A stretch of 64,000 bases of DNA. Source: Clostridia bacterium. GTDB lineage: Bacteria; Bacillota; Clostridia; Oscillospirales; CAG-272. Positions within the stretch are counted from its first letter, which is position 1, and each line of letters starts with the position of its first letter. The stretch covers positions 12,194 through 76,193 of the forward strand of contig JAFVTV010000038.1 of assembly GCA_017502975.1 (NCBI GenBank), read 5' to 3'. The notes under the pieces are model-generated. The model saw nothing but the letters and a program-made list of their open reading frames with translations, was not told where the DNA came from and did no database searches. This document shows positions 3,264-52,897 of the stretch, one piece after another. The position numbers were made by a program, and so were the translations under genes.

Positions 3264-5789
3264 ATGGAATACAAGAACGAAAATATTGAATTTCCCAATC
3301 AGATCATCGAAGATGTAGAGATGTCGGGGCGTGTCAAGCAGGCGTTTATCGAGTATGCAATGTCTGTTATCGTTGCCAGAGCCCTGCCCGACGTGCGCGA
3401 CGGTATGAAGCCCGGTCAGCGCCGCATCATGTATGCTATGTACGAGGATCACCTCACCTCGGACAAGCCCTTCTTTAAATCGGCTACCACCGTTGGTAAC
3501 GTGCTGGGTCGCTATCACCCCCACGGTGATGCCGCCGTTTACGGCACCATGGTGCGTATGGCGCAGGATTTCTCCTTGCGCTATCCGCTGGTTGAGGGTC
3601 AGGGTAACTTTGGCTCGATTGACGGCGATAGCCCCGCTGCTTACCGTTATACCGAGGCGCGCCTTGCCAAGATCTCAAACGAGCTGATGGCTAACCTTGA
3701 AAAGGAGGTCGTTCCCTTTGGCCCGAACTTTGATAACCGCCGCCGCGAGCCTCTGGTGCTTCCCTCGCGCTTTCCGAACCTCTTAGTCAACGGCTCGGTC
3801 GGCATTGCGGTTGGTATGGCGACCAATATCCCGCCCCATAACATGGGCGAGGTCATTGATGCAACCATTTATCGCATGGAAAACCCTGAGGCGACCGTTG
3901 AGGAGCTGATGCAGTACATCAAGGGTCCCGACTTCCCCACCGCCGCTACCTGCTACGGTGTGCAGGGTATCATCGATGCCTACCGCACGGGTAAGGGACG
4001 CGTGATGGTGCGTGCCAAGTGTGAGGTTGATGAGGAGAACCATTGCATCAAGGTAACCGAAATTCCCTACCAGGTCAACAAATCCGCGCTCGTTATGTCG
4101 ATTGCGGAACTTGTAAAGGATAAGAGAATTGAAGGCATTACCGATATCAAGGACGTTTCCTCTGACCGTAACGGTATTTGTATTTTGATCCCCTACCGTC
4201 GCGACGTCAACGGTCAGGTCATTCTCAATCAGCTCTACAAATACACCCAGCTGCAGGATACCTGCTCGATCAATATGCTCGCCCTTGTCGGCGGTGAGCC
4301 TCGCGTGCTTTCCCTGCCGCAGATCCTTGACTACTATATCGCGCACCAGATGGACGTGATCACCCGCCGCACGAAGTTTGACCTTGATAAGGCAGAGGCG
4401 CGCGCGCATATCCTTGAGGGCTATAAGATCGCAGGCGATCATATTGATGACGTTGTGGCGCTGATCCGTGCCGCTGCCTCGGTTGCCGACGCCAAGGAAA
4501 AGCTGATTGCAACTTACACCCTTACCGAAACGCAGGCGCAGGCGATCGTTGAAATGACGCTTGGTAAGCTGACAGGCCTTGAGCGACAAAAAATCGATGA
4601 TGAGCTTGAAAAGCTGCATCAGATGATCAAGGAGTTCCGTGCCGTGCTTGCCGATGAGCAAAAGGTTAAGGAGATCATCAAGGATGAGATGCTGGAGATC
4701 CGCCGTAAATACGCAGATGCACGCCGCACCGAGATCGTGGAGGCGACCGATGACATCGACCTTGAGGATCTCATTGAGCGTCACGATTGCGTGATCACCC
4801 TCACCCATGCCGGCTATATCAAGCGCCAGCCTGCCGATACCTATGCAGTACAGCACAAGGGCGGCAAGGGTATTATCGGTATGACCACCAAGGAAGAGGA
4901 CTTTATCGAAAAACTGATGGTGGTACACAGCCACGATTACCTCATGCTCTTTACCAATACGGGCAAGGTGTTTATGCGTAAGGCATATCAAATTCCCGAG
5001 GCATCGCGCACCGCAAAGGGCACCAATATCGTAAATGTTGTGGAAACCGTGCAGGGCGAGACCATTACCGCCATGATCGCCGTTTCCGAGTTTGATGACG
5101 AGCACTTCCTCACCATGGTAACAAGGAACGGTGTCATTAAGCGTACGCGTTTGAAGGAATACGAATACCAACGCAAGGGCGGTAAGATCGCGCTTTCGCT
5201 CGATGAGGGCGATGAGCTGGTGTTTGTGATGCACAGCAAGGGCGAAAACGACGTGCTGCTTGCAACGCACGAGGGTAGTGCCGCACGCTTTACCGAAAGC
5301 GCGGTAAGACCCCTTGGCAGAACGGCGCGCGGCGTGCGCGGCGTTAAGCTCCGTGAGGGTGACTATGTTGTAGGTGCCGTGATCGTTGACGACACCAAGC
5401 AGCTGATTACCGTAACCGAAAACGGATACGGAAAACGCACATCGTTTGAGGACTTCCGCCAGAAGGGCAGAGGAGGCCTTGGTGTTACCTGCCACAACCT
5501 GACCGAAAAGACAGGCTTGCTTGCAGGCATTGCCGCTGTGACCGATGAGGATGATCTGATGATGATCACCAACCTTGGTACGATCATTCGTACCCCCGTG
5601 GCGCAGATCAATACCTACTCCCGTACCGCCGCAGGCGTTATCGTCATGCGTCTTGGCGACGGTCAGACACTGGCAGGCTTCTCAAAGGTAGCCCATGAGG
5701 AGCAGGAGAATGAGGAGAATGCCCCCGAGGTACAGGTTGAAGTAACCGAGGCGCAGGCTCCCACTGCCGAGCAGCCCGAAAACAACTAA
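3264..5789 (+). CDS. gyrA: DNA gyrase subunit A
   Basis: Contains the QRDR-like region ([19 protein letters not shown]), the active-site [10 protein letters not shown] and C-terminal beta-pinwheel repeats. I prefer the ATG at 3264 (RBS aaaggaga) over the listed 3246. Confidence 0.96.
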
Positions 5790-5951: not shown

Positions 5952-6917
5952 ATGAAAAAACGTCTGATAGCCGTTATCGTGGCAATCGCGTTGATACTTG
6001 TATCACTGGGGGTGTTTTTGGTGGTGAGGCATATCAAAAACAATCGCCCGCCCGAGCTTGAGAGCCTAAGACCTCGCGTGATCGCACTCATTGACGCTTC
6101 GCATGAAATCAACGAGATCTTTTGGGGCGAGGGGCTTTCCACCCACCCGCGTGTATACCGCGAATACTATACACGTGTGCCGTTTTATTTGCAAGAGGAC
6201 GGCGATCACTATACCTTCAGCGACGCGCAGACCGACTACAAGCTCTATTATTATACCTTTACCGATGCAGAGGTTGGTGACATTCTTGCGTATCAGTATT
6301 GTCTGAAGGTCGCTGACGGCGTGTACGTTGACGTAGAAAAGGGTGGCGCCCTTACCATTGCCGATAAGATCAAATACCGCTACGCAAGAGTTTCGAGCGA
6401 GTGGGAGGAGGGCGTAATTTTTGAAGCGGGTGGAAAATACTATATCCCACTGCCCTCGTATGTCGAAAAGGAAGCGGATTTTTATTATACTTCCCAAGAT
6501 CCCGAGTATTACGACTATGTGCGTGATGATGCGGGGTATCTCACCACTGCCGCCATTAAGAGCAAGGCAGAGGGCGTTTATGCCAATGATTTTCTCTCCT
6601 CCGTGTATGAAAGTCTCTTTACGGGTATAACGATATCCGACAGCCAAAACGGCACGCTTTATGCGCGCTATATCGATCATACCGACACTGAGGGCAACGG
6701 CTATTTGATGAAGTCCAATATATGGACAGCGATACAGGTTTCGCGCGTTTATCTTTATGACACCATGCGTATGAGCGAGAAGCGCAAGAGTAACGCCACC
6801 GACGTTTTTATTGATATCGACAGCTACGTGCCCGGTAAGGAGAGCGAAACGCAGACCATTACCCTTTCCTTTACCCTGCAGGACGGCGCGTGGTATCTTA
6901 ATTCTGCAACCTATTAA
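5952..6917 (+). CDS. Hypothetical membrane-anchored exported protein
   Basis: 321-aa ORF with an N-terminal hydrophobic anchor (LIAVIVAIALILVSLGVFLVV) and a Tyr/Asp-rich ectodomain. I recognise no family. Confidence 0.6.
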   Translation: MKKRLIAVIVAIALILVSLGVFLVVRHIKNNRPPELESLRPRVIALIDASHEINEIFWGEGLSTHPRVYREYYTRVPFYLQEDGDHYTFSDAQTDYKLYYYTFTDAEVGDILAYQYCLKVADGVYVDVEKGGALTIADKIKYRYARVSSEWEEGVIFEAGGKYYIPLPSYVEKEADFYYTSQDPEYYDYVRDDAGYLTTAAIKSKAEGVYANDFLSSVYESLFTGITISDSQNGTLYARYIDHTDTEGNGYLMKSNIWTAIQVSRVYLYDTMRMSEKRKSNATDVFIDIDSYVPGKESETQTITLSFTLQDGAWYLNSATY

Positions 6918-6985: not shown

Positions 6986-7010
6986 GTAGGGGCGATTCAC
7001 GAATCGCCCC
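6986..7010 (+). repeat. REP-like hairpin, class iii (GTAGGGGCGATTCACGAATCGCCCC)
   Basis: GTAG head followed by a 9-10 bp perfect stem, located in intergenic DNA. Related copies lie at 26421-26442 and 26853-26876. Confidence 0.7.
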
Positions 7011-7177: not shown

Positions 7178-8872
7178 TCATTTCACCAAGTGGCGTTTGA
7201 TCTTGCGGGAGGTGGTTTTTTCAAACTCGGTATCACGAATCTCAAGCCCCTTGATCTTTTTAAAGGAGGGGAGTTTTTTGTTGAGGTCGGTGAGTTTACC
7301 GTAAATCACCTTGTAAACGGTATCGGCATCGGCGCTCTCACCGAACAGATCCTTGTTCGGGTATACCACGGCGGTCAGCAGCACGGTTTCACCATCGGTA
7401 TCCTTTCTGCCAACCACAACGCTTTCGGCAATCTCCTCAATTTTTTCAAGATATTCCTCGATCTCCTCGGGGAACACGTTTTTGCCGTTTTCCAGCACGA
7501 TGACGGATTTCAGACGACCCGTGATATAGATATAGCCCTCAGCATCCATATAGCCAACGTCCCCCGTGCGATACCAGCCGTCCTCGGTAAATGCCTTGGC
7601 ATTCTCCTCGGGATTGTTGTAGTAGCCAAGCATGACGTTCTCACCCTTGACCTGGATCTCACCCTCTTCAAAGCCCTTGTCGTTGACGTTGCCTGTTTTG
7701 GCAATGCGTGACTCGCAGCAGGGCACAGCAGGGCCGACCGAGCCGGGCTTTGGCGCATAGTAGGGTGCAACGGAAATCAGCGGCGAGCATTCGGTAATGC
7801 CGTAGCCCTCGCAGATCTGGATGCCAAATGCCTCAAAATTCTTTACCATTTCGGGGTTTAGGGGCGCGCCGCCGCAGATGATCTTTTCAAGGCGACCGCC
7901 AAAGGCGGCAAGAACCGAAGAAAAGAGTTTGCGGCGCAGGTCTATGCCGACCTTTCTCATACCGTTTGAAATTTTGATCATGTTGCGCAGTAGTTTTTCC
8001 TTGCCCTTTTTGCGTGCCTCGTCCCAGATCTTTTTGTACATCGTGTTGACGAACAGCGGCACGAGGATAAGACCCGTAGGCTTAAACTCCGCAAAGTTGC
8101 GCATGAGGTGGCGGAGCGTATCGTTGATGCCGATGGAAATGCCGTAGCAAAGGCTGGCAAGCATGATGGCAAGCTCGTAGGTGTGGTGCAGGGGGAGTAC
8201 CGAAACGGTTACGTCGTTTTCGTTGAAGTTTACGGTATTACAAGCCGCATTCACGCACGCGCAAATGTTCTTCTCACAGAGCATAACGCATTTGCTAGAG
8301 CCCGTGGTGCCCGAGGTAAAGAGCATCACGGCAAGCGACTCGGGGTCGCGATCAGGGAGCTGATAGCCATTCTCAAGCGATTTTTCTCCCATTTTAAGGA
8401 TTTCTGCAAAGGGAACGACCTTTTCCGTGGCACAATCCTCTTGGGGCTCCATAGGCACAAAAATACGCAGTGTGGGATGGCGCTCCATTACGGCTGCCAT
8501 TTTTTGATTGAAGCTCGCGGAATAAACGATCGCTTCCGCATCAACGCTTTCAAGTAAGCCCTCGATCTCGCCAATGGCAAGCTCCTTATCCATGGGGATG
8601 ATCACGCCGCCCGCAGCTGTGACCGCAAGGTAGGTGGCAACCCACTCGGGCGAGGTTTCGCCAATGACGGCAATGCGCTTGCCGGCAAGCCCCAATGCAC
8701 AAATGCCTGCCGCTAAGGTGTGTGCCTTGTGTGAGAATTCTGCATAGGTAAGCGCGCCAAAGGTCTTGCCCACGGGAAAGCGAAAGGCATTCTTCTCTCC
8801 CCTTGCCGCAAGCGCGGGGATCATATCCCTAAAGGAGTTCATGGGCGTAAAGATACGCGGCGTTTTTTTCAT
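7178..8872 (-). CDS. AMP-dependent synthetase/ligase (long-chain fatty-acid-CoA ligase-like)
   Basis: 564 aa with the AMP-binding motif LFTSGTTGSSK, plus GYGITE and YRTGD motifs. Confidence 0.85.
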   Translation of the reverse strand: MKKTPRIFTPMNSFRDMIPALAARGEKNAFRFPVGKTFGALTYAEFSHKAHTLAAGICALGLAGKRIAVIGETSPEWVATYLAVTAAGGVIIPMDKELAIGEIEGLLESVDAEAIVYSASFNQKMAAVMERHPTLRIFVPMEPQEDCATEKVVPFAEILKMGEKSLENGYQLPDRDPESLAVMLFTSGTTGSSKCVMLCEKNICACVNAACNTVNFNENDVTVSVLPLHHTYELAIMLASLCYGISIGINDTLRHLMRNFAEFKPTGLILVPLFVNTMYKKIWDEARKKGKEKLLRNMIKISNGMRKVGIDLRRKLFSSVLAAFGGRLEKIICGGAPLNPEMVKNFEAFGIQICEGYGITECSPLISVAPYYAPKPGSVGPAVPCCESRIAKTGNVNDKGFEEGEIQVKGENVMLGYYNNPEENAKAFTEDGWYRTGDVGYMDAEGYIYITGRLKSVIVLENGKNVFPEEIEEYLEKIEEIAESVVVGRKDTDGETVLLTAVVYPNKDLFGESADADTVYKVIYGKLTDLNKKLPSFKKIKGLEIRDTEFEKTTSRKIKRHLVK

Positions 8873-9108: not shown

Positions 9109-9234
9109 GTAGGGGGCGGCGCCTCGACGCCCCGCCAGCTACGATATGTAAAACATGTACACATATTGTAGGGACAGGCGCCCTCGACTGTTCGGGATCT
9201 TGCGCCAATGGGGCGTCGAGGCGTCACCCCGTAC
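9109..9234. repeat. Cluster of three REP-like hairpins (BIME-like)
   Basis: 9109-9135 is GTAGGGGGCGGCGCCTCGACGCCCCGC (class ii, + orientation). 9168-9194 is GTAGGGACAGGCGCCCTCGACTGTTCG (class i, +). 9210-9234 is the reverse complement of GTACGGGGTGACGCCTCGACGCCCC (class ii-like, -). Confidence 0.75.
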
Positions 9235-9365
9235 AAAGAAATTTTCAATTCTTTAGACAAGGTGTTAGCGCAAGGGAAAATAAAATATCGCCCCACCGCG
9301 GCACACTCCAAACGGAGCACGCTTTGGTCGGGCGATATCTTTATAAAGCTTGGTTTTTACGGTGC

Positions 9366-25642: not shown

Positions 25643-26257
25643 ATGAAAAAAACACATAAGCTTCTAATAGTATTGATTGCCCTAACAATTGTTGTTTTTA
25701 CTTGTACTATAATTCATCACAAAATATCCACACATTACACAATGTTTCGTTTTGATCAAAAAACATTGGAGTATGCTTTTTCAGACGAAGTGTCCTCTGC
25801 ACAATCATTTTGCGAAACTAAGGGGGCTAATACTATTCTATATGGTAGATATAAGTATGCTAAAGCAAACGATGATGGTACGCTCACAATTATCGTTGAT
25901 GATGAAACCTTAAGGTTATGGAAAAGTAGCGACTGGACCTTACAAATACTTCAAAGTTTGTTAGAAGAAAAAGAAATAGACATAGGCGTAGATATCGATT
26001 GGTCAGATGATTTTCTTAGCGCCAAACGCAAAGTTAAAGAGTGTGGAGTGGAAATTTCAGAGGATTATTCTTTAATCACTCAGGGTCCCGGTGATGATGG
26101 TTCATTTTACACTTTCCTATTGCCGGCATGTGTTTATATGCAAATTTTTGAAGGGAAGCAGGTTGGTGAAATAAAAGTTACTTATGTAGAAGTCGATGAA
26201 AAAGGCAATATTATTGATGAAATAAATTGGGAACTTGATTCAAGCAATAAATCATAA
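25643..26257 (+). CDS. Hypothetical membrane-anchored protein (AT-rich islet gene 1)
   Basis: 204-aa ORF with an N-terminal TM segment (LLIVLIALTIVVFTCTII). Composition is strikingly AT-rich compared with the flanks. I recognise no family. Confidence 0.55.
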   Translation: MKKTHKLLIVLIALTIVVFTCTIIHHKISTHYTMFRFDQKTLEYAFSDEVSSAQSFCETKGANTILYGRYKYAKANDDGTLTIIVDDETLRLWKSSDWTLQILQSLLEEKEIDIGVDIDWSDDFLSAKRKVKECGVEISEDYSLITQGPGDDGSFYTFLLPACVYMQIFEGKQVGEIKVTYVEVDEKGNIIDEINWELDSSNKS

Positions 26258-26420
26258 TTGTTTCAGCCGCGCCTTTGGGTACAGTGATTAAATCACATTC
26301 ATCATTCAAGTTTTAATTGTGAGGTGTTGGCTATGGTTAGATCAAAAACAGCAAAAACCCTCATTAAAGTATTATTGATATCTTTTCTTGCCTTGTTTTC
26401 ATTGCCCATCATTTTTTCGG

Positions 26421-26483
26421 GTGCTTCGTGAAGCGCCCCTACGGTACGAAAAAGGAGCGGGGCGTCGAGGCGCCGCCCCCTAC
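26421..26483 (-). repeat. Two REP-like hairpins (class iii and class ii), minus orientation
   Basis: 26421-26442 is the reverse complement of GTAGGGGCGCTTCACGAAGCAC. 26457-26483 is the exact reverse complement of the 27-mer at 9109-9135. Confidence 0.75.
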
Positions 26484-26852: not shown

Positions 26853-26876
26853 GTAGGGGCGTTTCAAGAAACGCCC
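26853..26876 (+). repeat. REP-like hairpin, class iii (GTAGGGGCGTTTCAAGAAACGCCC)
   Basis: GTAG head plus an 8-9 bp stem, followed by GTAC. Confidence 0.7.
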
Positions 26877-27056: not shown

Positions 27057-27083
27057 CGGACAGTCGGGGACGCCTGTCCCTAC
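27057..27083 (-). repeat. REP-like hairpin, class i
   Basis: Reverse complement of GTAGGGACAGGCGTCCCCGACTGTCCG, one substitution from the copies inside the RAYT-like gene. A truncated head copy lies at 27018-27024. Confidence 0.75.
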
Positions 27084-27183: not shown

Positions 27184-28980
27184 TTATTTTTCGCTTTCGT
27201 CGATTACGGCAATGGCAAGGTCGGCAAGCGCCTTGGGCTCTGCGGGAGCAGGGCAGCCCGACATCAGCTCGCTTGCGTTTTGCACCTTGGGGAAGGCAAT
27301 GACGTCGCGCAACGAATCTGCACCTGCCATGACCATGGCAAGGCGGTCAAGACCCATACCGGAGCCGCCGTGGGGCGGCGCGCCGTACTTGTAGGCATCC
27401 ACAAGGAAGCCAAACTTCTTTTCAATGTCCTCGGCAGTAAGCCCCAAGGCATTAAACATCTTTTCCTGCAGCTGCCAATCGGTAATGCGGATCGAGCCCG
27501 AAAGGAGCTCGGTGCCGTTGAGGACCATATCGTATGCCTTGGCACGCACCTTGCCGGGGTCGGATTCAAGGTAGGGTAGGCACTCCTCCATGGGCATGGT
27601 AAAGGGGTGATGCATCGCATCCCAAGCACCGGTTTCCTCGTTCCACTCAAAGAAGGGGAATTCGGTGATCCAAAGGAAGTTGTACTGCCCCTCGGGGATC
27701 AGCGCAAGCTTTTTGACAAGGAGGTTGCGCAGTGCACCAAGGGTGGGGAGCACCACGCGGTTTTTATCGGCAACGATAAGTGCAACGTCGCCTTTTTCCA
27801 TACCAAGTGCCGCGATCACAGCGCTTTGCTCGTCGGGCGTGAGGAATTTTGCAAAGGACATATTGGGTGCATCATCGACCCAGCGAATGTAAGCAAGACC
27901 CTTGGCGCCAATGCCCTTGGCATGCTCGGTCAGCTTGTCGATCTCCTTGCGCGAGAGGGTCGCCGCCGCGCCCTTGGCTACAATGCCGCGCACGCTGCCG
28001 CCTGCGGTGATCGCACCGCTAAAGACGGAGAAGCCGCAATCCTTTACAACGGGGGAGATATCCTTAATTTCCATACCAAAGCGCGTGTCGGGCTTGTCGC
28101 TACCAAAGCGCTCCATTGCCTCGGCATAGGTCATGCGCGCAAACGGCGTTTTCAGGGTGACACCCAAAAGCTCGCGGAAGGCACGTACGATAAAGCCCTC
28201 GTTCATCTCCATGATATCCTCTGCGGTTGCAAAGGACATTTCAAGGTCGATCTGTGTAAATTCGGGCTGGCGGTCTGCACGCAGATCCTCATCACGGAAG
28301 CAACGCGCAAGCTGAATGTAGCGGTCAAACCCAGAAAGCATCAAAAGCTGCTTGTAGATCTGGGGGGATTGGGGCAGGGCATAAAAGCTGCCCTTGTGTA
28401 CGCGGGAGGGCACCAGATAATCGCGCGCACCCTCGGGGGTCGCCTTGATCATCATGGGTGTTTCAATTTCCATGAACCCGTTTTCAAAATAATACTCGCG
28501 TGCAATGCGCGCAAGCTCGTGGCGCATGCGGATATTTTTCTGTAGCTCGGGGCGTCTTAAGTCAAGATAACGGTATTTGAGTGCCGTTTCATCCTTCACG
28601 CGCTTGGTATCAGAAACCTCAAAGGGAGGTGTTTGCGCGGCGGAAAGGATCTTCATTTCGGTGACATACACCTCAACCTTGCCTGTGGGGAGGTTGGGGT
28701 TTACAGCACCCTCGCCACGGGCGCGCACGGTGCCGTGCACGGCAACAACGTACTCGGCGCGGCAGGAAAATGCCTTTTCGAATACCGTTTTGGGGGTAGT
28801 GTCATCAAAAGCAAGCTGCAAAAGACCCGTGCGGTCGCGCAGATCGATGAAAATGAGTGCGCCAAGGTCGCGCTGGCGCTGCACCCAACCCATAACCGAT
28901 ACCGTTTTGCCGATATCCTGCTCGGAAAGGATGCCGCAGTAATGTGTTCTTTTGTCCTGTGCGGTTAGAAATTCAGCCAT
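27184..28980 (-). CDS. aspS: Aspartyl-tRNA synthetase
   Basis: 598 aa with an N-terminal OB anticodon-binding domain, class II motifs (FRDEDLRADRQPEFTQID; GGSGMGLDRL) and a GAD insertion. Confidence 0.96.
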   Translation of the reverse strand: MAEFLTAQDKRTHYCGILSEQDIGKTVSVMGWVQRQRDLGALIFIDLRDRTGLLQLAFDDTTPKTVFEKAFSCRAEYVVAVHGTVRARGEGAVNPNLPTGKVEVYVTEMKILSAAQTPPFEVSDTKRVKDETALKYRYLDLRRPELQKNIRMRHELARIAREYYFENGFMEIETPMMIKATPEGARDYLVPSRVHKGSFYALPQSPQIYKQLLMLSGFDRYIQLARCFRDEDLRADRQPEFTQIDLEMSFATAEDIMEMNEGFIVRAFRELLGVTLKTPFARMTYAEAMERFGSDKPDTRFGMEIKDISPVVKDCGFSVFSGAITAGGSVRGIVAKGAAATLSRKEIDKLTEHAKGIGAKGLAYIRWVDDAPNMSFAKFLTPDEQSAVIAALGMEKGDVALIVADKNRVVLPTLGALRNLLVKKLALIPEGQYNFLWITEFPFFEWNEETGAWDAMHHPFTMPMEECLPYLESDPGKVRAKAYDMVLNGTELLSGSIRITDWQLQEKMFNALGLTAEDIEKKFGFLVDAYKYGAPPHGGSGMGLDRLAMVMAGADSLRDVIAFPKVQNASELMSGCPAPAEPKALADLAIAVIDESEK

Positions 28981-52243: not shown

Positions 52244-52360
52244 GCAGTTCTATGTTGTAAAAAAGGAAAACGCGCATTTGCGAGGGTTCTCGTAAGGATG
52301 CTCACAAATTTCGGCAGAGATGTTATTTTCTCTGCCGATTTGTGCTATATTGAGAGGGTG

Positions 52361-52897
52361 ATGGAAATAGAAGAATTAAAAAGTAGAAAAACGCCAAGAT
52401 ATCAAAGCTTTGATTATAATAGTGTCGGCGCATATTTCATAACGATCTGCACGCAAAACAGGCGACCGCTTTTATCTCGCATCGTAGGGACAGGCGTCCT
52501 CGACTGTCCGCAAACCGAATTGACACGATACGGAAAAATTGCAGATAAATACATCAAACAAATAAATGATTTTTACAATCATTTATCGGTTGAGAGTTAT
52601 GTGATAATGCCTAACCATATTCACCTTTTGCTTTGGGTGAAGGAAAATAAAAACGCGGCCGATAACGGACAGTCGAGGACGCCTGTCCCTACAAATGTTG
52701 AGCGAGCAAACAGTGTGTGTTCGCAATTTGTATCGACATTTAAGCGCTTTTGCAACAAGGAGTATGGCGAAAACATTTGGCAGGCTCGCTTCAATGACCA
52801 TATCATCCGAAACCGCGCAGACTATGAAGAACATTTACGGTATATTTACGAAAATCCGCTTCGTTGGTACTACGATGAATTATACACGGCAGAATAG
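52361..52897 (+). CDS. IS200/IS605-like Y1 (HUH) transposase homolog, RAYT-like
   Basis: HUH motif (VIMPNHIHLLLW) and a C-terminal block (IWQARFNDHIIRNRADYEEHLRYIYENPLRW) with the catalytic-Tyr context. The start at 52361 follows gagaggg. Confidence 0.85.
   Translation: MEIEELKSRKTPRYQSFDYNSVGAYFITICTQNRRPLLSRIVGTGVLDCPQTELTRYGKIADKYIKQINDFYNHLSVESYVIMPNHIHLLLWVKENKNAADNGQSRTPVPTNVERANSVCSQFVSTFKRFCNKEYGENIWQARFNDHIIRNRADYEEHLRYIYENPLRWYYDELYTAE
52484..52510 (+). repeat. REP-like hairpin class i, in frame inside the RAYT-like gene (left arm)
   Basis: GTAGGGACAGGCGTCCTCGACTGTCCG, which encodes part of IVGTGVLDCPQ. Confidence 0.9.
52666..52692 (-). repeat. REP-like hairpin class i, in frame inside the RAYT-like gene (right arm)
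   Basis: CGGACAGTCGAGGACGCCTGTCCCTAC, the exact reverse complement of 52484-52510. It encodes part of NGQSRTPVPTN. Confidence 0.9.

Follow-up and report, generated by a model that had tools for sequence, protein, structure and literature searches.

An inverted pair of REP elements within the reading frame of a RAYT-like transposase gene from a gut Clostridia genome

Introduction

The 64,000-nt stretch of DNA analysed here (hereafter the window) comes from contig JAFVTV010000038.1 of the Clostridia bacterium assembly GCA_017502975.1 and contains a single gene for a transposase resembling the REP-associated tyrosine transposases (RAYTs). Two copies of a repetitive extragenic palindromic (REP) element lie within the reading frame of this gene, at sites termed S1 and S2. 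They are exact 27-nt reverse complements of each other, 155 nt apart, and the codons of the HUH motif lie between them (Table 1). A first-pass annotation, made from the sequence alone, had drawn attention to this pair, and its coordinates, reverse complementarity, spacing and translations were all borne out. An equivalent pair was found in most of the sampled relatives of the gene.

Table 1. Features of the RAYT locus and dispersed REP copies, in window coordinates
Feature	Position	Strand	Remarks
RAYT / TnpAREP-like Y1 HUH transposase gene	52361..52897	+	178 aa plus stop (stop 52895-52897); motifs nearest subclass 2.4 / Group 4
In-gene REP, site S1	52484..52510	+	GTAGGGACAGGCGTCCTCGACTGTCCG; GTAG head and hairpin on coding strand; encodes V42-P50 (VGTGVLDCP)
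In-gene REP, site S2	52666..52692	-	GTAG head and hairpin on non-coding strand; overlaps codons N102-T111 ((N)GQSRTPVPT)
155-nt spacer	52511..52665	+	Encodes helix alphaA, strand beta2 and HUH strand beta3
HUH motif codons N85 H86 I87 H88	52613..52624	+	Read from sequence
Putative catalytic tyrosine Y161, motif RYIYENP	52841..52843	+	First Y of YIYENP; aligns to YIYINP of 4ER8
Dispersed REP copy, 2 mismatches	9168..9194	+	Within intergenic cluster of REPs
Dispersed REP copy, 1 mismatch	27057..27083	-	In ~0.9-kb REP-rich gap, with ORFs 25643-26257 (+) and 27184-28980 (-) on either side
Terminator-like hairpin, 10 bp	52311..52338	+	TCGGCAGAGA...TCTCTGCCGA plus TTTG; just upstream of RAYT start; overlaps likely promoter region

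Results

As judged by its motifs and modelled fold, the open reading frame (ORF) at 52361-52897 encodes a Y1 HUH enzyme of the TnpAREP/RAYT type. The HUH segment reads PNHIHLL (residues 84-90), in which H86 and H88 do not vary in either alignment, A1 or A2, and N85 is invariant in A1 only. Y161, invariant in A2, is the putative catalytic nucleophile according to its motif. A profile built from close homologues matched the Escherichia coli TnpAREP chain 4ER8 (E = 4e-9) over beta1, the HUH strand and the Y motif. In addition, a structure was predicted with AlphaFold2 from a 76-sequence alignment (predicted local distance difference test score [pLDDT] 85.7; predicted template modelling score [pTM] 0.80), and its best fold match in the Protein Data Bank, obtained using Foldseek, was again this chain (4ER8_A, E = 1.6e-7, TM 0.57-0.61), followed by the IS200/IS605 TnpA structures (ISDra2/IS608 TnpA). 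Sequence identity to E. coli TnpAREP was about 24-27%. The last modelled helix, which bears the Y motif, ends at residue 171, seven residues before the C-terminus, and there is no C-terminal tail domain. Together with a match to the NCBIfam model NF047646, the profile and fold matches agreed with the RAYT-like identity first proposed for this gene.

The inverted-repeat score of the in-gene pair was 27, compared with a maximum of 10 in shuffled sequences and 8 in the direct-orientation control. Folded as single-stranded DNA (ssDNA), the 27-nt unit showed a 4-nt unpaired GTAG head and a 6-bp stem, as the first-pass annotation had described, and two further inner pairs that leave a loop of 4 nt (folding energy -8.7 kcal/mol, z = -3.65). 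The unit has the form of the GTAG super-family of REPs, namely an unpaired 5' GT[AG]G followed directly by a G+C-rich stem-loop, within 20-40 nt. As free RNA, the region 52470-52705 folded with the two arms paired as a 27-bp helix enclosing the HUH-coding segment, with a minimum free energy of -93.2 kcal/mol vs. -49.9 for shuffles (z = -10). Neither a second copy of the spacer or of the HUH segment in the 64-kb window nor a flanking REP within 300 bp of the gene was found. A REPIN that replicates as a unit was considered for the pair and rejected, as the window holds no second copy of the spacer.

Both REP-encoded peptides map to loops in the AlphaFold model, in line with the structural check proposed earlier. 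The S1 peptide (residues 43-50) forms the turn of a predicted beta-hairpin (39-42/51-54) between beta1 and alphaA, and the S2 peptide lies in the predicted beta3-alphaC loop (94-112), which joins the HUH strand to the helix that follows; pLDDT there falls below 50 at residues 106-110. On the minus strand, two ORFs that cross the arms (52414-52557 and 52621-52806) encode the look-alike peptides GQSRTPVPT and VGTGVLDCP, since the palindromic REP can be read without a stop in reverse complement as well.

The arrangement was then followed in a family sample of 82 genes, comprising the window gene, the related locus L001 and 80 relatives from a metagenome scan (34-82% identity). To score inverted pairs, the segment before the HUH motif was matched without gaps to the reverse complement of the segment after it, and the best score was taken, with a threshold of ≥14; shuffled controls reached 13 at most and direct-orientation controls at most 16. 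A significant inverted pair bracketing the HUH motif was present in 57 of the 82 genes, and every match was a GT[AG]GGG-hairpin unit. GTAGGG was read in frame 0 (Val-Gly) in 56 of these 57. The left arm ended 28-44 residues before the HUH motif in nearly all paired genes, the right arm started 6-13 residues after it in most, and the spacer mostly measured 125-180 nt. A second, independent method, which looks for GT[AG]G together with a stem of ≥6 bp, recorded S1 on the plus strand in 61 genes and S2 on the minus strand in 62, with both in 50 and neither in 9, and it returned the wrong orientations only 1 and 2 times. Furthermore, REP-like units were far denser inside the RAYT genes (3.19 per kb) than more than 300 bp away from them (0.17 per kb).

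Sequence comparison of the units showed that the two arms change together. Among 41 distinct in-gene units, the stem starts right after GTAG in 38. The stem and loop sequences differ widely between lineages with the pairing kept, and the arms of one gene differ from each other at 0-3 positions. Hairpins were ≥0.93 identical between genes whose proteins share ≥60% identity, computed outside the REP peptides, and fell to a baseline of 0.65 below that level. REP type tracked protein similarity, since only 1 of 999 Mantel permutations reached the observed value. Moreover, two tandem RAYT paralogues at locus L084 each have their own in-gene REP type. The last ~29 residues of these paralogues (5018-5521 and 6110-6619 of the metagenome-assembled genome [MAG] contig JAZOCL010000034.1 in GTDB) are identical, which suggests a recent chimera or 3' gene conversion.

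The level at which the two segments are conserved was evaluated by aligning the codons of 11 relatives with this REP type, which have 53-100% protein identity to the window gene. Pairs of codons for the same amino acid differed in 7.8% of cases in the REP codons vs. 48.5% outside them. The synonymous difference was 0.00 in most REP codons and 0.5-0.8 in the codons of the catalytic P-N-H-I-H. The two segments are thus constrained as nucleotide sequence and not merely as peptides. This comparison was the one the first-pass annotation had asked for, and the low synonymous variation disposes of the objection that the repeats are just a conserved protein motif.

Copies of the unit outside the gene were sought in the window at up to 3 mismatches, with 100 dinucleotide-preserving shuffles as control. 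Four matches were obtained, the two in-gene arms and the two intergenic copies reported earlier, which differ from the in-gene unit at 2 and 1 positions (Table 1), and all 100 shuffles gave 0. A scan of one genome per GTDB species, using the 27-mer with three Y positions, returned at least 120 stretches. Among the matches listed, all were MAGs from the gut, assigned to Oscillospiraceae, Acutalibacteraceae, Ruminococcus, Lachnospiraceae, Eubacteriales and unclassified Clostridia; several contigs per MAG often carry the 27-mer, and copies number at least about five per MAG. At 80 GTDB loci, 100 exact copies were counted, 14 in RAYT genes and 86 outside, the latter mostly in AT-rich DNA not covered by a long ORF (≥150 aa). 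These extragenic copies occur as singles, as inverted doublets in both relative orientations and as short tandem arrays. They include intergenic doublets with other spacers (L089, L100 and L106) and intergenic copies tandemly arrayed together with their flanks (L095, L148 and L150). Across many species, the majority form among the dispersed copies is identical to the in-gene sequence, and synonymous sites elsewhere are saturated. The 27-mer is therefore a genuine GTAG-type REP, dispersed in the intergenic DNA of many related genomes, and the RAYT gene carries copies of its associated REP family, as had been proposed. Exact copies of each relative's own in-gene REP were mostly absent up to 10 kb on either side of the gene.

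Relatives that lack one in-gene arm often have a matching arm just outside the coding sequence (CDS). For example, at L022 and L019, the in-gene right arm is absent and a matching arm in the same orientation lies just downstream of the CDS; at L079 and L056/57, the in-gene left arm is absent and a matching arm in the same orientation lies just upstream. A tblastn search of the plasmid collection for named distant relatives recovered one in-gene pair (Monoglobus), one flanked REPtron (Leptolinea) and two Bacteroidota genes without in-gene REPs. The cyanobacterial matches belong to another subclass. The search as a whole informed the orientation rule but did not help placement in subclass 2.4 (see Discussion). 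The Leptolinea relative (Chloroflexota), on a plasmid, has flanking REPs only and none in the gene; they lie at -415 and -291 on the plus strand and at -54 on the minus strand, and the three downstream are all on the minus strand. In position and orientation, the in-gene pair is therefore the counterpart of the REPs that flank the gene in a REPtron. The in-gene pair of Monoglobus pectinilyticus encodes VGADSISAR and RADMESAPT. This homologue (L205; NZ_OY725736.1, 155312-155797) lacks beta1 at its N-terminus, so that its sequence opens with the S1 REP. On either side of it is a gene for a site-specific DNA methyltransferase, and the CDS given in the annotation leaves out S1 and starts downstream of it.

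In-frame tandem arrays of the units were also observed. S1 of L001 is an array of 4.8 copies of a 27-nt unit (8123-8252), and other S1 arrays have units of 33, 48 or 54 nt (array-bearing S1 proteins P0001, P0003, P0047 and P0113). S2 is arrayed in frame in P0002, P0030 and P0055, which have the 27-nt type, and in P0042. The unit boundaries vary and sometimes include native flanking codons, which speaks for duplication associated with the hairpins and not for clean transposition. Two degenerate RAYT remnants were also identified. That of L105 (2182-2409) breaks right after S1, and that of L156 (526-787) has lost residues ~29-115 in a deletion that spans S1 and S2. Both losses are consistent with REP- or palindrome-associated deletion.

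Besides the 27-mer, the window contains at least four other GTAGGG-hairpin families, in two intergenic clusters (~8.9-9.4 kb and 26.3-27.2 kb) and at 6986. Their units were located at 6986-7010, 9109-9133, ~9211-9235, 26418-26442, 26459-26483 and 26853-26876. Two of these families are closely similar to the in-gene REPs of L013-16/L014 and of L076/L044/L084 paralogue 2, with an identical stem and loop or with 2-3 mismatches. Given this resemblance to the in-gene types of other lineages, the genome probably encodes further RAYT paralogues outside the window.

The start of the RAYT gene was set at the ATG at 52361, on which a GAGGG ribosome-binding site and the N-termini of homologues agree; these also ruled out an in-frame upstream ATG at 52298. 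The gene lies among genes for a DUF1508 protein, a small protein without a Pfam match and a Toprim/DUF4093 protein. In L001, as in the window, an ORF of ~220 aa lies directly upstream on the same strand, a likeness of ORF size and place alone. A hairpin similar to the terminator-like one before the RAYT start also occurs at the same place in L001. A scan of the whole window against Rfam at gathering thresholds returned no family. The closest database relative of the protein is 88% identical, and a word-indexed search found ~8000 close homologous proteins. In public data, the homologues form 22,328 clusters at 50% identity for E ≤ 1e-3 and 340 for E ≤ 1e-30. Just 4 of the 120 best homologues carry a source name: 'transposase', 'hypothetical protein' (twice) and 'REP element-mobilizing transposase RayT'.

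Discussion

Because S1 and S2 show the same left-plus, right-minus arrangement as the REPs that flank related genes, we favour, with modest confidence, reading the pair as an internalised REPtron doublet, that is, as conserved DNA elements whose peptides are passengers in loops and whose in-gene copies evolve with each other and with the dispersed family. The gene would thus hold its cognate REP doublet inside the reading frame instead of beside it, with one REP on the coding strand just after beta1 (S1) and the opposite one 6-13 residues past the HUH motif (S2). The conserved entity would be the DNA element, with its GTAG guide tetranucleotide and hairpin, the features that RAYTs recognise on ssDNA, and VGTGVLDCP and GQSRTPVPT would be passengers in two surface loops. 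By analogy with the known chemistry of TnpAREP, the encoded enzyme may act on the in-gene copies. The arms and the dispersed copies would evolve in concert, so that each RAYT lineage would carry in its own gene the REP type of its family. Homogenisation could proceed by RAYT cleavage and rejoining at REPs, by template-switch or gene-conversion correction between the arms, or by both, and selection for recognisability by the enzyme may add to it. The hairpin-prone units also grow and shrink in frame as tandem arrays. The 27-bp long-range mRNA duplex may lower expression, probably as a side effect. A stronger version, in which the pair is a selected cis module that provides a permanent substrate copy (a seed or 'master' REP) and throttles expression through binding of the RAYT to the extruded hairpins or through the mRNA duplex, is possible but doubtful.

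Several observations weigh against the internalised doublet or against parts of it. Between 25% and 40% of relatives are without one or both in-gene REPs, and the pair is therefore dispensable. Most scanned loci longer than 8 kb contain no dispersed copy outside the gene, up to 10 kb on either side. The nucleotide conservation could come wholly from mechanical homogenisation (quasi-palindrome correction), with no need for use by the enzyme, and part of the conservation of the Val-Gly frame may be owed to an 'IV.G' motif native to the protein, which relatives lacking the REP have as well. The identity and class of the enzyme also have points against them. A Pfam scan of the ORF gave no match at E ≤ 0.01, PF01797 (Y1_Tnp) included, and the match to NF047646 (REP-associated tyrosine transposase; E = 5e-18), at 65.3 bits, lies below the cutoff of 80. 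Both models appear too narrow for this clade, since the fold and motifs of a RAYT are present. Assigned by motifs alone and not from a tree, the protein is best matched by subclass 2.4 (Bertels Group 4); its NHIH and WQ fit that subclass exactly, and its Y motif, YIYENP, is one residue off (E for N), the family consensus being YIxxNP.

The alternative nearest to the internalised doublet treats both REPs as dead passengers, old insertions in permissive loops on which the enzyme is inactive, which are rarely excised and are kept perfect by template-switch or gene-conversion correction. This is essentially the published reading for such insertions (Quentin et al., 2018; PMC6006769), whose text places the beta3-alphaC insertion of its model away from the DNA-binding and catalytic sites. 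It accords with the location of both sites in loops (S2 modelled with low confidence), with the variable copy number and the arrays, and with the loss of the pair in part of the family. However, site, frame and orientation are kept down to 34% protein identity, and the unpaired GTAG head is kept in 56 of 57 genes even though palindrome correction gives it nothing. In addition, the dispersed copies of many species share as their majority form the sequence present in the gene, despite saturated synonymous sites elsewhere. We consider this explanation unlikely. Autoregulation at the mRNA level is less probable again. It would have the 27-bp helix around the HUH segment serve as an RNase III substrate or as an obstacle to translation that keeps the transposase low, and the strongly favoured pairing of the arms in the RNA fold, their perfect co-variation within genes across lineages and the retention of pairing even where one arm lies outside the CDS, probably still within the transcript, all speak for it. 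A role as duplex only, however, leaves the hairpin and conserved GTAG head of each arm unexplained, as well as the identity of the arms with a dispersed REP family, and translating ribosomes would melt the helix.

Two further explanations have little to recommend them. The first-pass annotation had suggested an invertible off-switch, in which the 27-bp arms recombine and turn the 155-bp HUH segment around, shutting the gene down in a reversible way. Perfect inverted repeats do surround an essential segment, and on a reading of the minus-strand ORF 52621-52806 the flip would truncate the protein shortly after S1. Yet there is no recombinase among the neighbouring genes, and no inverted allele was present in the 82 metagenomic and window genes or in 9 GTDB RAYT loci found via the REP, a weak test because assemblies report only the majority orientation. 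The sole rearranged copies are deletions or truncations (L105 and L156), and arms of 27 bp come close to the minimum length for RecA recombination. The switch is thus very improbable. Even less credence is due to the view that S1 and S2 are conserved protein motifs with incidental nucleotide complementarity. Val-Gly and Pro-Thr are widely conserved in the family alignment, but it is in the REP codons only that synonymous variation is almost absent, and the peptides are read in different frames and orientations while the DNA remains perfectly complementary. Moreover, the peptide sequences are wholly different between lineages with hairpin potential kept, and the 27-mer is mostly extragenic. The synonymous-site data, the lineage-specific peptides and the extragenic copies rule this explanation out.

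The arrangement touches on the question of how RAYTs and REP families stay matched over long evolution and why the genes are retained. An enzyme and two copies of its substrate lie within the same 540 bp and co-diverge, which allows enzyme-substrate pairs to be read out computationally; the 82 genes yield at least 41 distinct hairpins, and public data contain thousands of 50%-identity clusters. Such pairs could serve the study of the recognition code of HUH ssDNA enzymes. If the selected-module version were true, the cognate REPs of thousands of uncultured RAYTs would be readable from their coding sequences. The gene also offers a compact experimental construct, as synonymous recoding of 18 codons would remove both REPs and leave the protein unchanged. 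Annotation is affected too. In Clostridia, REP-encoded peptides (VGTGVLDCP, GQSRTPVPT and VGADSISAR, for example) give rise to spurious ORFs and false protein similarity, and the minus-strand ORFs across the arms and intergenic REPs can likewise yield spurious 'hypothetical proteins'. The family itself is missed by Pfam and falls below the NCBIfam cutoff.

The first-pass annotation knew of no description of this architecture; the general phenomenon of REPs inside such genes has, however, been published. In their classification of TnpAY1 proteins, Quentin, Siguier, Chandler and Fichant (2018, BMC Genomics 19:475; PMC6006769) describe, as a feature unique to subclass 2.4, tnpAREP genes with REPs inserted in frame, together with a highly variable beta3-alphaC insertion whose length heterogeneity stems from short DNA repeats, and suggest that the insertions are tolerated peripheral loops. 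Table 1 of that paper lists NH[IFV]H, WQ and YIxNNP as the motifs of subclass 2.4, with no tail domain. Its text also summarises the chemistry of TnpAREP, in which the enzyme recognises GTAG plus a hairpin and cuts and rejoins REPs (citing Ton-Hoang 2012 and Messing 2012). The searchable text of the paper, Fig. S10 excepted, mentions no upstream REP before the HuH motif and no inverted pair bracketing it, and that searchable text likewise contains no conserved frame or orientation, arm co-variation, nucleotide-level constraint or Clostridia clade. Intragenic GTAG REPs in other genes have been reported (Di Nocera et al., 2013; PMC3733652). Bertels et al., 2017 make no mention of in-gene REPs, and a further full-text literature search returned nothing more on them. 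Measured against the searchable part of PMC6006769, the conserved, co-evolving inverted pair in a Clostridia clade of subclass-2.4-like RAYTs is possibly an undescribed regularity.

Subclass 2.4, as presented in the text of PMC6006769, is among the closest known systems, sharing with the window gene NH[IFV]H, WQ, a YIxxNP-type motif, the lack of a tail and an in-frame REP insertion between beta3 and alphaC, which corresponds to S2. It differs in that its genes are also flanked by REPs, whereas the window gene has none within 300 bp, and in its taxa, which in that text are mainly Cyanobacteria and Bacteroidetes rather than gut Clostridia. The E. coli REPtron (tnpAREP/rayT, yafM; 4ER8) has the same fold and catalytic motifs as the window RAYT and, with its BIMEs (bacterial interspersed mosaic elements), the same type of substrate, a GTAG guide tetranucleotide plus hairpin. 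According to the text of PMC6006769, its REPs are inverted on the two sides of the gene and one REP family belongs to each RAYT. In contrast to the window gene, the E. coli REPs are extragenic and the enzyme belongs to subclass 2.2 (DHLH, WE, YIHYNP).

The REPIN-RAYT system of Pseudomonas (Bertels and Rainey, 2011; PMC3116915) likewise has an inverted REP doublet that can form a long hairpin and co-evolves with a vertically inherited, single-copy RAYT. Those REPINs, however, are extragenic, have short non-coding spacers and replicate as units, whereas the spacer here is 155 nt of essential coding sequence. Rickettsia palindromic elements and intragenic GTAG/CGTC REPs (PMC3733652) show that in-frame palindromes are tolerated, presumably in loops, as singles, dimers or clusters; they were inserted in unrelated host genes at non-conserved sites, unlike the present pair, which occupies family-conserved sites of its own transposase. 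Finally, IS200/IS605 elements combine a Y1 HUH enzyme of related fold with hairpin-plus-guide-tetranucleotide sites on either side of the region coding for the catalytic core. Their left and right ends (LE and RE) are on the same strand and outside the transposase ORF, whereas the arms described here are on opposite strands and inside it. The whole IS200/IS605 element transposes and is present in multiple copies, whereas the window RAYT sits in a chromosomal context resembling that of L001.

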